A stretch of 64,000 nucleotides of DNA from NCBI GenBank assembly GCA_963849325.1, contig CAWKHF010000012.1, positions 928,001 to 992,000 of the forward strand, in the 5' to 3' direction. The position numbers and the translations under genes were made by a program. Of this stretch, positions 27,460-33,047 are shown piece after piece. The notes beneath the pieces were generated by a model. That model made no database searches. It worked only from the letters and a program-made list of their open reading frames with translations, and was not told the origin of the DNA. This DNA comes from an uncultured Planctomycetota bacterium (GTDB lineage Bacteria; Planctomycetota; Planctomycetia; Gemmatales; Gemmataceae). How positions within the stretch are numbered: the stretch's first letter is position 1; every line of letters begins with the position of its first letter.

Positions 27460-30116
27460 TCAACGCACGTAGAGAAAACGGTTCGAGGCCATCAGTGCCT
27501 GGCAATAGGTCGCCAGCGCCGCCCGGGCCGGGTCCGCGAGCGTCGGCGGGCTGGTCGGCTGGGCCGACCCCCGCCGGGGCCGGCGGGCCGGCTCGGCCGG
27601 CGGCGCCGAGGCCAATTCCTTCACCCGCGCCCGCAGCAGCTCCGTCTGCCGGGCCAGGTACGCGGCGGCCGACTCGACCTCGACTTCGTTCGCCTCGACG
27701 CCGAAGGCGAGACGCCACGCCAACCGCACCTGCCGGATCGGATCATCGCCGGCCTCGGCCCGGACCCGATCCGCAAACGCTTCCGCCGTGCGCAGCGCGA
27801 AGGGGCTGTTCAGCAGCAGCAGCGCCTGCGGCGTAACCGTGGAGACCATGCGGACCTCGCAATTGGGCGCCATCATCGGAGCGTCGAACGCCTCCAACTC
27901 CGGGCTCAACGCCGTCCGGCGCGCCGCCAGATACACGCTACGCCGACAGGCCAGGGTCGGGACCCGAGTCCTCCGCCCGGCCTGATCGGTGCTTTCCGAA
28001 GCGACCGGCACGGGCGGCCCGAACGGGCTGGGGTCCAGCTTGCCGGAGACAGCCACCATCGCGTCGCGCACAGCCTCGGCCTCCAAGCGGCGGACGGAGA
28101 AGCGAGCCAGGAGGCGGTTGTCCGGATCGACGGTGTCCAGCCGCGACCGCCGGGCCGACGACTGCCGGTAAGCGGTCGAGCAGACGATCAGTCGGTGCAT
28201 CGCCTTCAGACTCCACCCTCGGGCCGGCAGCTCGCTCGCCAACCAGTCGAGCAGGGCCGGATGGCTGGGCCGATCGCCGAGCCGGCCGAAGTCCGCCAGG
28301 GTAGTCACGATGCCGCGGCCGAAGTGCAGCGCCCAGACCCGGTTCATGAGCACGCGGGCCAACAGCGGATGCCGGCCGTCGGTCAGGTGGCGGGCAAAGG
28401 CCAGCCGCCGTCCGGTGGTCGGCACGTTCGGGTCTTTCTCCGGAATGTCCGTCTCGACCACGCCGCCCAGGACCAGGAGGTCGCCGGGCGGCACCGCCTG
28501 CTTGGGCTGCTCGTGATCGCCGCGGTGCAACAGCCGAGTGACCGGGACTTTACCCGGAACCTCGGTCAATACCCGGACGAACTCCTCTCGCGGCTTGGAG
28601 GCCAGGATCGCCTTGATCCGAGCATCGTATGCCTCCAGCCGCTTTTGACCTTCCAGGATCCCCGGCAGACGTTGGAAAAGTCCCAGGTTGGAGGCGTTCA
28701 CCCGATTTCAGGTTCGGGTAACGGTCGAGGACTCGTGCTTGCTCCGCCGTTCGTCGGGACGGGGCAGATTCATCGCCGCGGCGACAAGGGGACGATCGCT
28801 CTCCGGGAGTCGTTGAATCAGCACGGCCTTGATCTTGGCGATCTGCTCGCGGACGAGTTGGTCACGGGCGCGCTTCTCGGCGGCCGCCTCGCGGTCGATC
28901 GTCTCGACCTTTCGGCGATGGGCCTCTCCGGCCAGCGAGATCCGTCGCTGGTCCGGCGTGCGCCAGTTCTGCCAGTCCAGGGCCGGCTCAAAGACGGCGC
29001 GGAGGCGATGGTAGTCTACGTGGCTGATCGGGTCGTAGCGGTGGTCGTGGCAGCGGGCGCACTGCACGGTCAGACCCAGCAGGGACGTGGACACCACCTG
29101 GAGCGTGTCGGCGATCACCTGGTTGCGCACCGCCGGGGTGTTCTCCTGACCGGTGCCGTCCGGCACCATCCGCAAGAAGCCGGTCGCGGCCAGCTTGTCG
29201 AGGTCGGCGGCGGAGAGGTCCTGGTACGGCGGCCGCACCATCTCGTCGCCGGCCAGTTGCTCCTGGAGGAACTGGTCCAGCGGCTTATCGGCGTTGAAGG
29301 AGCGAATCACGTAATCGCGGTAACGGTAGGCGTCCGCGCGGGGTGGGTCGCGCTCGCTGTGTCCCTCGGAGTCGGCGTAGCCGGCGACGTCCAGCCAGTG
29401 GCGGCCCCAGCGCTCGCCGTAGTGCGGGCGACGCCAACAATTCGTCCACCAGCCGCTCGTAGGCGTCCGGGGCTGTGTCGGCGACGAAAGCGGTCCACCG
29501 CCTCGGGTGTCGGCGGCAGGCCGAGCAGGTCGAAAGAGAGCCGGCGGATCAGGGTCGCCCTGTCGGACTCGGGAGAAAAGGTGAGTCCTTTCTCTTCCAA
29601 CGCCGCCAGCAGGAAGGCGTCGATGGGCGTGCGGACTTTCGCGGCCTCCTTCACGGCGGGCAGAGGGGGCCGTCGGATCGGGCGGAACGCCCACCAGGTG
29701 CGTTCCTCCTCGGTGAAGTACGGCTCCGCCCCGAGGGATGTCGGCTCCGGGCGCACCGTCGGCGCACCGTCGGCGACCCAGCGGCGCAGCAGCTCGACCT
29801 CCCGCGGGGTAGGCCGCTTCTTCATCTCCGGTGGCGGCATTTCCTGATCGGCGATGCGCCGCAGCAGCAGGCTTTCCTCCGGCTTGCCGAGCGCGACCGC
29901 CGGCCCGGAGCGGCCGCCGGCAACGAGGGTGCGGCGCAGGCGCAGGTCGAGCTTGCCCTTGGGCTTTCCCTCCTCGCCGTGGCAGTGGAAGCAGTGCGTC
30001 TTGAGGATGGGCCGGACGTCGCGCTCGTAGGTCACCCTAGGCTCTGCCCCGGCGGCGAGGCCCGGGAGGAACGCGGCAACGGCGGGAATGAGGACGCGGC
30101 GAAATCGGTCCAGCAT
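27460..30116 (-). CDS. PSD1/planctomycete cytochrome c protein (DUF1549+DUF1553; frameshifts near 29480, 29430 and 28705)
   Basis: CFHCHG heme motif, WAFRP, YGERWGRHWLDVAGYADS, CARCHDH, NRVWALHFGRGIV, PSHPALLDWLA, TPQALLLLN. Confidence 0.88.
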
Positions 30117-30194
30117 GACTTACGGTCCTGAGAGAACAACCCGGTGCGGAATCGGGAAAGTCCTGCGATCGCGGGGGTAGGGTAGGCCGATTCG

Positions 30195-30223
30195 ATTATC
30201 CACTCAACCATCGCGCGTGTCAA
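30195..30223 (-). promoter_or_regulatory. Sigma70 promoter of the PSD1-DUF1501 operon
   Basis: Minus strand TTGACA-17 nt-GATAAT, about 80 bp upstream of ATG 30116. Confidence 0.65.
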
Positions 30224-30267
30224 CGGGGTGGGACCGGAATCACAGTCATGGGGTTGGCTGGGCCGCA

Positions 30268-30411
30268 CTAGCGTAATGACTCGACGCACCGTCTATCGCG
30301 TGGCCGATCCACTGCAGCGACTGGTTCGAGCGTATGCACGGCGCCGCACCCCGCAGCGGTAAGCCAGGTAGTCATCCGCTGAGGAAGTTGCGCATCCACG
30401 AGGAAATTCAT
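30268..30411 (-). pseudogene. Truncated DUF5615 (PIN-like) toxin
   Basis: MNFLVDAQLPQRMTTWLTAAGCGAVHTL matches the DUF5615 N-terminus, then runs into an attC-like sequence and stops at 47 aa; not in the ORF track. Confidence 0.7.
30270..30330 (-). other. attC-like site, 5' half (downstream of the TA cassette)
   Basis: Minus strand CTCGAAC-cagtc-GCTGCAGtggatcggccacgcg...; 20/22 identity with 32166-32187. Confidence 0.55.
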
Positions 30412-30446
30412 GGGACCACCGGGTAGAGCCGGCGGGTCCGAGCTAG

Positions 30447-30641
30447 TCAGGCGGCGAAAGCCAGTACAGCTAAGAGATCGTCACGCTCCAGGTCGCTGTA
30501 GTCGGCCAAGATCTCATCCATAGTCATACCCGAACTGAGCAATTCGAGGAGCGTCTCTACCGGGTAGCGGAGTCCGCGGACGCACGGCTTGCCATGACAA
30601 ACCGATGGATCAATCGTAATTCGAGAGAGTAGTGTGTCCAT
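30447..30641 (-). CDS. DUF433 antitoxin (apparent premature TGA; ancestral stop probably overlapped the toxin ATG at 30411)
   Basis: RITIDPSVCHGKPCVRGLRYPV...GMTMDEILADY.DLERDD; the frame continues after TGA as LARTRRLYPVVP to an ATGA overlap. Confidence 0.85.
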   Translation of the reverse strand: MDTLLSRITIDPSVCHGKPCVRGLRYPVETLLELLSSGMTMDEILADYSDLERDDLLAVLAFAA

Positions 30642-30784
30642 ATCCCTAGCATACCAAAAACGGACGCCCTCATCGCCGAACAATAAGCTCAGATGGGGAT
30701 GATGCCGGGTTGCTCCCACCGACGACAAGCCGGCGGTATTATGGAGTAACCCAGTAAAAGCCACCCCATCTGGAGCAACCCGAC

Positions 30785-31798
30785 ATGTCCACCACTCTAC
30801 CACTGTTCGTCGGACTGGACTACTCCCAACACGCCGTCCAACTGTGCGTCTTGGACCCCACGGGTCAGGTCTTGTGTAACCGCGCCGTGCCTGACTCCGC
30901 CGACGCCATCGATCAGGCCGTCCGGCGATTCGGTGCCGTCCGCGGCGTCGCCCTGGAAGCCTGCACCGGAGCCGCCAACCTCGCCGAGGAACTCGCCGAC
31001 CGCTTCGCCTGGCCCGTCCACCTCGCCCACCCCGGCTTCGTCTCCCGCATGAAGCAGTCGCCCGACAAAACCGACTTCTCCGACGCCCGCGTCCTGGCCG
31101 ACCTCGAACGGGTCGGCTACCTGCCCCGCGTCTGGATCGCCCCCAAGCAGCTCCGCGAGTTGCGTACCCTGGTCCGCGACCGCCAGCAGTTGGCCGCCCA
31201 GCGACGCAACCTCAAACTTCAGATCGGTGCCCTGCTACGGGAACACCGCCTACGCTGTAGCCACAACCGCTGGACGCGGGCCTGGCACGCCTGGCTGGAG
31301 CATCAAGCTCAACTGCCCGAACAAGCACGCTGGGTCATGCAACAACGCCTGCGTCGGCTGGCCTGGATCGTCCAGGAGATCCGCACCGTCGAAGAACGTC
31401 TCGAACAAGTCACCGCTGTGGACGGCACCGTAACTTGGCTGCGGACGATCAAGGGCATTGGTCCGGTCACCGCCTGGACGTTGCGGGCCGAGATCGGTCG
31501 CTTCGACCGTTTCCGCACCGGCAAGCAGTTGGCGCGGTACTGCGGCCTGACGCCGTGCAACCGCTCCTCGGGCGTGCGTGAGGCCGACGCCGGTTTGATC
31601 CGGGCGGCCAATCCCGAACTGCGTCGCGTGCTCATCGAGGCGGCCTGGCTGTTGGCTCGTCTGCAGCCGCGTTGGCGGCAACTGGCCGAGCGTCTGAAGG
31701 CACGGGGCAAACCGAGTACGGTGGTGATAGCGGCCGTGGCCAACCGCTTCGTGCGTTGGTTGTACCACGAAGGAGTCCGCCAACAGGCGGCGGCCTGA
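30785..31798 (+). CDS. IS110-family DEDD recombinase/transposase (intact, 337 aa)
   Basis: FVGLDYS, VALEAC and KTDFSDA (D-E-D-D); TIKGIG; YCGLTP..RSSG with the catalytic-type Ser; LRRVLIEAA. Confidence 0.95.
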   Translation: MSTTLPLFVGLDYSQHAVQLCVLDPTGQVLCNRAVPDSADAIDQAVRRFGAVRGVALEACTGAANLAEELADRFAWPVHLAHPGFVSRMKQSPDKTDFSDARVLADLERVGYLPRVWIAPKQLRELRTLVRDRQQLAAQRRNLKLQIGALLREHRLRCSHNRWTRAWHAWLEHQAQLPEQARWVMQQRLRRLAWIVQEIRTVEERLEQVTAVDGTVTWLRTIKGIGPVTAWTLRAEIGRFDRFRTGKQLARYCGLTPCNRSSGVREADAGLIRAANPELRRVLIEAAWLLARLQPRWRQLAERLKARGKPSTVVIAAVANRFVRWLYHEGVRQQAAA

Positions 31799-31839
31799 CG
31801 GATAGTGACAAGGCGTTGTCATTGTCGGGGAAGTTCCTG

Positions 31840-31975
31840 AGCGGTTGCGGGTGTGCTCGGCCGGCTGCTGGGGTTTAATCCTCGCGCTCAGATGGGGCAG
31901 CCCGCAACCTTTCTTCGCATCCCATTTGGGCAGGGTCTTGAACCCACGCTCGGATAAGAAGCATGGGAGCCCCAA
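31840..31975 (+). ncRNA. Predicted bridge/seek RNA of the IS1111-type element (ends approximate)
   Basis: Stem GGTTGCGGG/CCCGCAACC enclosing GCCGGCTGCT (9/10 to the bottom strand of the right target flank plus core) and GCTCAG (left flank plus core). Confidence 0.65.
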
Positions 31976-32338
31976 CAGCGTCGGCGTCCTGCCGAAGATT
32001 TCGCCGCCTCCGTGCGGCGACCAGGGGCGCTCATTGCCGCCCCCTGGACCCCCGGCTAGCCTCTCTCTGTTCCGGGAGGAAGAGAGGAGACTAACGCCGA
32101 GAAAAGGTGATTTTCCTCTTGACGAGTGGCCTGGCATCATAGAAGCAACCGGCTCACGCGGGACGAGCGTAAGGACTTGACGCACCGCTCAAGGGATGCC
32201 GGCATGACGGGCCGCTTCGGGATCGATAGGCCGCAGCGCCTCGGCGGCAGTCCGACGCCAGGGGTCTTCACACTTGAGTCGGTTTCGACCAACGCTTTCC
32301 GCGTCGGATCATACGGCTTCGCGGTCCCAGCGGATTGC

Positions 32339-32768
32339 TCAAGGATCGAAACGCGCCCGCAGGTGCGGAGGCATCAGCGGGCACACGTCCGCTGGGCGAG
32401 CGAAGAGACGATGGCGGACACGGGCGAGGCCGTCATAGAGACGGTCGCGGATGACGGCGGGGACCAGGACGAGCAATCCGGACAGCACACGCCAGACGCC
32501 GCCCAGACGTCGCAGGATGTGCAGCACCGCGGCCGAGCGCAGTCAACAGCAGCCCGTTCTCGGTTCGCACCACGAGGCTGAGTGGCAGGGCCGCACGCTC
32601 GTTCTCGGAGACCAGCGCCGCAAACGTCTCGCCCTGCAGCGGCGCGAAACGGAAGGCCGTCCCTGCCGCATCCACGGCCAAGATCCAGCGAACGGATCGA
32701 TGGCAAAAGCCGCAATGACCATCGTAAAAGATAGTCTCCGTGCCGACGGGCGACGGACGAAGGGTCAT
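32339..32768 (-). CDS. DCC1/DUF393 thiol-disulfide oxidoreductase-like protein (frameshift near 32535)
   Basis: IFYDGHCGFCHRSV, FAPLQG, RDRLYD..ARVRHRLF. Confidence 0.85.
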
Positions 32769-33047
32769 GGACGGGGAGCCTCCCAACAACGACGCTATGC
32801 GAGTTCGCCACGTCTGACCGATCCTACCCGCCAAGTCGCCCATTGGCACCAAACTTTTCAAACCGCGTCCAGAATCGACGAATCTCCCGTCGGCCGATTC
32901 CACTGGAAAAAATCGCTCCGGTGTTGTAAGACGTGCCACTCGCAAGATCGTTGTCACGAAAAGGGAAATGGGCCTAGCGCAAGCTCCAGGGACCATCTGT
33001 CCGAGTACCAGCGGCCAACGGCACTCGATCAGGCAAGGAGGAGAGCC

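Follow-up and report, generated by a model that had tools for sequence, protein, structure and literature searches.

An IS1111-type insertion sequence from a planctomycete genome, very probably guided by its own RNA to an attC-like repeat

The subject of this work is a stretch of 64,000 nucleotides from contig CAWKHF010000012.1 of an uncultured Planctomycetota bacterium (assembly GCA_963849325.1), denoted here as the window, and within it a 1453-bp element that an earlier note had singled out as an IS1111-type element carrying readable guides for its own attC-like target. It can be stated with high confidence that positions 30693-32145 constitute an intact IS1111-type insertion sequence, whose recombinase has an RNA guide encoded immediately 3' of its gene, at 31834-31977. 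This reading is built on the element and its four copies, their common target, the conserved RNA fold, the covariation between guides and flanks, and the intact catalytic residues of the recombinase, all of which were observed in this analysis. The coordinates and strings given in the earlier note all proved correct when the window was read again. The parts needed from the outset are the following.

30693 to 32145, plus strand: insertion sequence of 1453 bp, with four full-length genomic copies that share identical ends and differ in their outer flanks.
31834 to 31977, plus strand: putative seekRNA or bridge RNA with two internal loops, delimited by covariance models R1 and R2 and by structure covariation.
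31860 to 31869, plus strand: T guide GCCGGCTGCT, whose complement is the top strand across the core AG and the right flank CAGCCGGC.
31885 to 31891, plus strand: B guide CGCTCAG, a 7-nt slot that repeats the top-strand sequence of left flank and core and can pair with the bottom strand.

The match between the T guide and the right junction, reported earlier as 9/10 for the right flank plus core of the window copy, was recovered there and in copy L002, and it rises to 10/10 in the two remaining genomic copies, L003 and L004. The B guide agrees with the window's flank at six of its seven positions, and the string GCTCAGATGGGG at 31886-31897 is identical to the left junction at 30687-30698. The 64-kb window has exactly two occurrences of this 12-mer where 0.03 would be expected, and none of 100 shuffles reaches two. 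The 12/12 match to the left junction thus stands as an identity of strings, but only CGCTCAG is a variable guide, since the ATGGGG that follows it is invariant scaffold, in which GGGC pairs with GCUC at 31855-58. A pairing of this ATGGGG with the left end after strand exchange was also considered, and the variants show no covariation: L013 combines TTTGGG with ATGGTA and L011 combines ATGGAG with ATGGGG, and L014 and L015 have variant left ends with the RNA unchanged. The 10-mer AGCAGCCGGC, allowing up to one mismatch, has 25 matches in the GC-rich window against 13 expected and means little when taken alone; it gains weight because its slot is fixed in a conserved RNA scaffold and because the family covaries.

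This covariation among homologues, which the earlier note had set as a test, was assessed in relatives at 47-91% identity, comprising 12 genome loci and 80 metagenome loci, so that 96 loci were examined when the four own copies are included (loci are cited by their L numbers). The module was located by the regular expression CTCG-N9-(T/G)GGG ... CTCG-N7-ATGGGG in 69 of them, one representative was kept per distinct guide, and only the five positions outside the core entered the B-guide score. Scored against the right junction of their own element, the 40 distinct T guides reach 8.43/10, whereas other junctions give 4.69/10 (standard deviation 1.28), and for the 40 distinct B guides the corresponding values are 3.42/5 and 1.32/5; in neither case did any of 10,000 permutations reach the observed sum. 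An example is provided by L039, L040, L052 and L058, where guides of the form TGCT-A/T/G/C-.. stand beside flanks GCGT-T/A/C.. and GCGCGAGCG, each complementing its own guide. The putative guide segments, therefore, covary with the flanks across homologues. As described for IS1111 seekRNAs (PMC11187229), the top-strand match comes first in the 5' to 3' direction, and the two matches overlap at the insertion point.

A second line of evidence concerns the fold into which both guides are set, whose first module is organized as follows.

31843 to 31909, plus strand: target-binding module, made of a 9-bp stem (31843-51/31901-09), a GCUC/GGGC clamp (31855-58/31895-98) and an inner 4-bp hairpin (31870-73/31880-83).

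The alignment of the RNA comprised 54 of 59 distinct sequences (L012, L015, L034, L074 and L100 were excluded, as they have long insertions or lack the second loop), and its consensus has 27 pairs: a variable 9-bp stem, the GCUC/GGGC clamp, an internal loop with guides on both sides, an inner GGGC/GCUC hairpin and a second loop of like design. The guide slots have fixed lengths, 9-10 nt and 7 nt, and both loops are clamped by the same GCUC/GGGC helices. The proportion of paired cells is 96.7%, compared to 37-54% in controls with slid partners, and double-change cells number 183, compared to 32-53 in these controls; in helix 2 of the target module both sides are changed in 9 of 13 pairs. The predicted stems, including the 9-bp stem formed by GGTTGCGGG (31843-31851) and CCCGCAACC (31901-31909) that had been described earlier as enclosing the guides, carry compensatory changes, and the predicted fold is conserved across the family. 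Covariance model R1, derived from the 54-sequence alignment, scores 115.9 bits at the window locus, and its matches across the genome are exactly the four copies of the element. The earlier note had asked for such a model, and it also holds when the closest sequences are removed: model R2, built from 44 sequences with the window's subclade and L013 left out, finds a single match in the window, at 31833-31977 (94.7 bits, E 1e-22). A search of Rfam over 30000-33000, at E up to 1, gave nothing relevant, with only a chance match at 32350-32446.

The element that carries this RNA possesses the ends and the gene of the IS1111 type.

30693 to 30709, plus strand: left end, with the terminal extension ATGGGG (30693-98) and the subterminal inverted repeat ATGATGCCGGG (30699-30709).
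32130 to 32145, plus strand: right end, with the subterminal inverted repeat CCTGGCATCAT (32130-40) and the terminal AGAAG (32141-45), which includes the core AG (32144-45).
30785 to 31798, plus strand: recombinase (transposase) gene of 337 residues, the sole long frame within the element, identified by Pfam, NCBIfam and a profile alignment with IS621.
32119 to 32124, plus strand: TTGACG, an outward-facing, -35-like hexamer at a fixed offset among the right ends of relatives.

The first bases of the element are ATGGGGATGATGCC at 30693 and the last are GGCATCATAGAAG at 32145, and 30691-32143 are equally valid boundaries, the ambiguity of 2 bp being due to the presence of AG at both junctions. 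Excision in silico of 30693-32145 rebuilds the target ataagctcAGcaaccggctc, confirming what had been proposed. The subterminal inverted repeats span 11 bp with one mismatch (ATGATGCCGGG against the reverse complement of CCTGGCATCAT), the IS1111 family usually having repeats of 11-13 bp that are perfect or nearly perfect. Outside its repeats this family has unequal terminal extensions, 7 or 6 bp on the left and 3 bp on the right; here they measure 6 and 5 bp with AG assigned to the right end, and 8 and 3 bp with AG assigned to the left, an assignment that the sequence cannot make. Relatives with the left end ATGGGATGA have extensions of 7 and 3 bp. Non-coding DNA extends for 92 nt upstream and 347 nt downstream of the recombinase gene, with the longer side downstream, as in the IS1111 family. 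Subterminal repeats, a long downstream non-coding region and a top-strand guide in the 5' position together make up the IS1111 architecture that had been anticipated.

The encoded protein contains the Pfam domains PF01548 (71.8 bits) and PF02371 (87.4 bits) and scores 204.9 bits, with a cut-off of 140, against the NCBIfam model 'IS110 family RNA-guided transposase'. When a profile of 11 relatives was aligned with IS621 (PDB 8wt6, E 1.3e-26), residues D12, E58, D97, D100 and S262-G263 fell on D11, E60, D102, D105 and S241-G242 of IS621, whose catalytic roles are described in PMC11208158. The motif GLTPCNRSSG occupies residues 254-263, with P257, S261, S262 and G263 invariant in the relatives' alignment A1, and the pattern given for IS1111 transposases is GL-P----S(T)G (PMC11187229); the length of 337 residues falls in the IS1111 range of 330-350. 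The product is thus predicted to be a DEDD/Ser recombinase of the IS110/IS1111 type with its catalytic residues in place, and the assignment to the IS1111 type made in the earlier note is upheld. As for the hexamer at the right end, 48 of the 56 distinct right-end segments have TTGAC/T at one common offset (3/56 being false pattern calls), and when the ends are joined TTGACG lies 17 nt upstream of GAAGAT across the junction, which agrees with the junction promoter described for excised circles of the family (PMC11187229).

The target was defined from the copies found in the assembly, which comprises 8.16 Mb in 14 contigs and is 84.7% complete. It contains four full copies, each matching element positions 1-1453 at 98-100% identity, and a 195-bp remnant of a relative. 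All four are inserted in the same orientation at ..(A)AGCTCAG:C(A/T)(G/A)CCGGCTCACGCGG.. (the colon marks the insertion point), that is, at GCTCAG:C(A/T)(G/A)CCGGCTCACGCGG in four of four cases and not at the unrelated sites that would have spoken against a programmed target. The reading frame is open in every copy. The copies vary at 30 positions, 25 of them within the gene, where they give rise to 0-4 amino acid changes, and the guides are identical in all four, the single variable position of the RNA region lying outside guides and helices.

Integron attC sites are characterized by inverted R''/R' 7-mers (RYYYAAC / GTTRRRY), imperfect L''/L' arms, unpaired bases and a variable central loop. 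The uninterrupted target sites of this genome read GCCGAAC-..-AGCTCAGCAGCCGGCTCACGCGG-loop-CGCGTGGCCGGTCTGCTGCAGCG-..-GTTCGGC and fold as long, imperfect, bulged hairpins of about 105-125 nt, with arms AGCTCAGCAGCCGGCTCACGCG / CGCGTGGCCGGTCTGCTGCAGCG and variable loops; their boxes GCCGAAC / GTTCGGC agree with the attC consensus at 6/7 positions each. An nhmmer profile made from 13 sites finds about 36 copies of this hairpin repeat in the genome, mostly single or paired, and the repeated attC-like family claimed in the earlier note is therefore real. The target is, as far as its predicted folding goes, the 5' arm of a repeated hairpin that is attC-like in architecture. The window copy occupies a half site, whose two parts are as follows.

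30675 to 30692, plus strand: left target half, with an R''-like box GCCGAAC (30675-30681), a spacer and AAGCTCAG ending in the core AG (30691-30692); the left flank GCTCAG is present at all four copies.
32146 to 32188, plus strand: right target half, CAACCGGCTCACGCGG followed by loop sequence; the L'/R' half of the hairpin is missing here, so that no L'/R' arm stands to the right of this copy.

From these elements, a mechanism can be proposed in which the 5' arm of the first loop, GCCGGCTGCT, would pair with the top strand over the core AG and the right flank CAGCCGGC, and its 3' arm, CGCTCAG, would pair with the bottom strand over the left flank GCTC and the core AG, so that the element would be aimed, in a single orientation, at GCTCAG:CAGCCGGC. 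The second loop, through the right-end sequence ..ATA(A)GAAG and a CCCAT that partially complements the left end, would recognize the joined ends of the excised circle, with the predicted junction ..CATCATAGAAG:ATGGGGATGA. By analogy with published relatives, the gene and the RNA would be transcribed from a promoter rebuilt at the circle junction with the outward TTGACG, the RNA would then be processed, and strand exchange would occur at the AG core. The second loop has the following parts.

31917 to 31967, plus strand: putative donor-binding module, with a 5' arm GCATCCCATTT (31917-27) and a 3' arm GGATAAGAAG (31952-61), then CAUGGG.
31928 to 31951, plus strand: hairpin of the donor module, GGGC/GCUC (31928-31/31948-51) and GGG/CCC (31933-35/31943-45).

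The earlier note had suggested that this stem-loop resembles the two sides of the circle junction, a claim that survives in part: the strings are in place (CCCAT at 31921-25, AGAAG at 31957-61) and the 3' arm covaries in three of four cases, but the 5' arm fits the left end only partly. The 3' arm, which in most relatives is GATAGAAG beside a right end CATAGAAG, matches ..ATAGAAG across the family, and it tracks variant right ends in L076, L091 and L008 but not in L015. Thus, GATCGAAG is paired with CATCGAAG in both of two loci (L076 and L091), GATAGAGG with CATAGAGG in one of two, and in L008 the arm changes together with the right end (AGAGG). The 5' arm, CCCA(T/C), is complementary to the left-end TGGG, and the helix closing the loop is ambiguous among three invariant partners. 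The second loop is likely the part of the RNA that would recognize the joined ends as donor, with the reservation that the 5' arm fits only with bulges and its CCC pairs internally in one alignment.

Several observations weigh against the RNA-guided reading as a whole and must be set beside those that favor it. In the right flank of the window copy, and likewise in that of L002, there is one mismatch to the T guide. Among the relatives, the T guides of L011 and L074 (2/40) match the right junction at 4/10 only, four further ones (L013, L036, L042 and L046) reach 7/10, and the regular expression dropped 27 of the 96 loci, some of them on cut contigs and some with a longer inner hairpin, as judged by eye for L014. 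In the donor loop, the 3' arm of the window's subclade has one extra A with respect to the right end (GATAAGAAG), agreement of the 5' arm with the left end is limited to CCCAT or requires bulges, and in one alignment its CCC may pair inside the RNA instead. The whole assembly contains one unoccupied perfect 14-nt target site, and little can therefore be said about present activity. None of the public sequencing runs contains more than 0.10 of the element's words, and four soil RNA libraries yield only contigs of relatives (85-99% alike), with no joints, starts or ends; contigs cannot show transcription, and since these come from relatives only no conclusion on expression or habitat was drawn from them.

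The alternative that best survives the evidence, and which we nevertheless regard as unlikely, is that the parts are correctly identified but the element is no longer mobile here, the four copies being old, fixed insertions. In its favor, neither a circle junction nor an empty-site polymorphism nor RNA was observed, 30 positions vary among the four copies, and the 195-bp remnant of a relative indicates that decay occurs. However, identity among the copies is 98-100%, their frames are open, their guides are identical, and their ends and catalytic residues are intact; the 25 of 30 differences that lie in the gene bring only 3-4 amino acid changes. Considerably less probable, to the point of being hard to maintain, is the notion that the recombinase reads the shape or sequence of the attC-like hairpin directly, as integron integrases do, with the RNA serving for regulation or termination and the matches being by-products. 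The target does sit in a structured repeat that forms a long imperfect hairpin, and IS1111 elements prefer folded targets such as attC and repetitive extragenic palindromic (REP) sequences (PMC11187229). Yet relatives with the same scaffold lie in unrelated flanks that match their own guides, of which there are 40 distinct ones, the window copy sits in a half site without the second hairpin arm, and published relatives depend on the RNA, which can also be used to reprogram them (PMC11187229). Finally, that the non-coding matches are relics of a nested or tandem insertion junction, or chance in GC-rich DNA, and not functional guides, was already disfavored and is scarcely credible: the 10-mer with up to one mismatch is indeed frequent (25 against 13 expected) and the ATGGGG within the 12/12 match is an invariant scaffold segment that shows no covariation with the left end, but the exact 12-mer is found twice against 0.03 expected, and both segments occupy fixed slots of a fold with compensatory changes and vary together with the flanks throughout the family.

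The RNA-guided reading places the element close to systems already described. IS1111 elements that target attC and carry a seekRNA are known, namely ISKpn4, ISPst6 and ISPa25 (Siddiquee et al. 2024, PMC11187229). They share with the present element a DEDD/Ser transposase of about 340 residues, subterminal inverted repeats and a long downstream non-coding region, an RNA with the top-strand match 5' of the bottom-strand match and overlap at the insertion point, and orientation-specific insertion into an attC-type hairpin repeat; the element of the window differs from them in using another attC family (R boxes GCCGAAC/GTTCGGC) and in its Planctomycetota-type genome. The bridge RNA of IS621 (Durrant et al. 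2024, PMC11208160; Hiraizumi et al. 2024, PMC11208158) likewise has two loops, for target and donor, each reading both strands around a 2-nt core, and the recombinases share the same catalytic pentad, PDB 8wt6 being the best solved relative (E 1.3e-26, family profile). Unlike that of IS621, the RNA here lies downstream of the gene, in the right end, rather than upstream; the two strand matches come in the opposite order, the inverted repeats measure 11 bp rather than 2-3 bp, and the core is AG rather than CT. The location in the right end is the expected layout, because bridge RNAs are predicted there in 93% of IS1111 elements (Durrant et al. 2024, PMC11208160). The family also resembles ISEc11 and ISXne4, close relatives that retain the RNA stem and swap guide bases with the target (PMC11187229), just as L039, L040, L052, L058 and the 40 guides do here, although clade and targets are different.

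The mechanism, including IS1111 members that target attC, is thus already published (Siddiquee 2024; Durrant 2024), and the element adds no new mechanism; it is, therefore, a new IS1111 element. The earlier proposal of a candidate programmable-recombinase ortholog is retained as regards family, guides and covariation, but not as regards novelty of the mechanism or of attC-targeting seekRNAs (PMC11187229). Literature searches found no paper on such elements in Planctomycetota and, on the wider subject, brought up only the 2024 papers and one survey; the supplements of the two 2024 papers may list related elements. Among the IS110-family transposases of 72,556 plasmid records, none exceeds 33% identity to the protein; the matching ones show 23-33% identity over 91-98% of the query and are annotated only as 'IS110 family transposase'. 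At this low identity the protein appears to form a separate lineage from the plasmid-borne IS110-family transposases. Because the protein is so distant from them, attC retargeting may have arisen independently of the clinical IS1111-attC group, the distance being measured against plasmid-borne proteins.

The significance of the family resides in its providing a natural data set for RNA-guided recombinases, with about 60 related elements, 40 distinct readable guide pairs and mapped junctions. Its compact, regular RNA scaffold and small, 337-residue recombinase, far from those studied, would be useful in the search for new orthologues and for rules on guide length and mismatches. It also means that integron-type attC repeats in a Planctomycetota-type genome have been colonized by IS1111-type elements. 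The planctomycete host proposed from the sequence fits the neighboring PSCyt1/PSCyt2 gene and the fact that 10 of the 12 genome loci with relatives are in records of Planctomycetota lineages. When the genomes of the phylum were searched with the protein (E <= 1e-40), only its own genome was returned (1/401).

The closest relative in the genome collection, L006, has 82% amino acid identity, the same guides and the same attC-type flank, and lies on a 2.7-kb contig binned as Chloroflexota, which reflects either horizontal spread or a binning error. Another relative, L007, is in a record assigned to a metagenome-assembled genome of Betaproteobacteria.

Beyond the guide RNA, the right end contains one more structured region.

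31978 to 32105, plus strand: extra structured module of three hairpins, about 125 nt, present only in the window's attC-targeting subclade.

It folds at -63.4 kcal/mol (z -3.53), with none of 200 shuffles folding as well, and relatives carry compensatory changes in its hairpin 2. Neither L029 nor the wider family has the module, and in this genome it is found inside the four copies of the element only. It could serve in processing, in stability, or in the control of excision versus insertion. We put forward only as a speculative possibility that these elements represent an uncharacterized IS1111-type clade, centered on Planctomycetota and soil, with an unusually regular RNA and an attC subclade that has gained this module as a possible new functional RNA domain. 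The module is the stretch most often present in contigs from soil RNA libraries; 31982-32072 occurs at 95-99% identity in contigs from four of these libraries, with flanks unlike this element.

Other observations concern the copies and their surroundings. A total of 21 of the 30 differences between copies cluster at 30948-31219, and all 21 separate the window copy from the other three, a pattern suggestive of gene conversion of this segment from a diverged relative. A search for an integron integrase in the 84.7%-complete assembly gave no match above the TIGR02249 cut-off, and the best integrase-type match in the genome was rejected as IntI, since it is XerD (334 bits, above XerD's own cut-off). 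An N-terminal integron-integrase fragment (64.8 bits; L114 13040-13627) lies about 4 kb from copy L004. A different IS110-family transposase (198.7 bits; L114 9139-10692, G000 C5:67139-68692) begins some 0.5 kb beyond the right side of L004 and its remaining attC part, and an ISH3-family transposase is also found nearby. The surroundings of L004 look like a decayed, integron-like hotspot of mobile elements.

In the window, an orphan attC-like half (loop, L' and R', ..CGCGTGGCCGATCCACTGCAGCGACTGGTTCGA) is located at 30271-30330, 340 bp to the left of the insertion sequence. Its loop, AGCGTAATGACTCGACGCACCG, is a near-repeat of the loop to the right of the element, AGCGTAAGGACTTGACGCACCG (32165-32188), and these near-repeated loops suggest a rearranged or duplicated cassette boundary. 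The region 30295-30641 contains a DUF433 gene (30450-30641, minus strand, 86 bits), followed by the first 28 or so codons of a DUF5615/PIN-like gene (E 0.0014, below the cut-off) that ends exactly at the start of the orphan attC half; the pair looks like a truncated cassette of the toxin-antitoxin type. The PSCyt1/PSCyt2 (DUF1549) gene adjoining the cassette, at 28708-30116 on the minus strand, is split across two overlapping frames (profile positions 1-53 and 65-206), the result of a frameshift or an assembly error.

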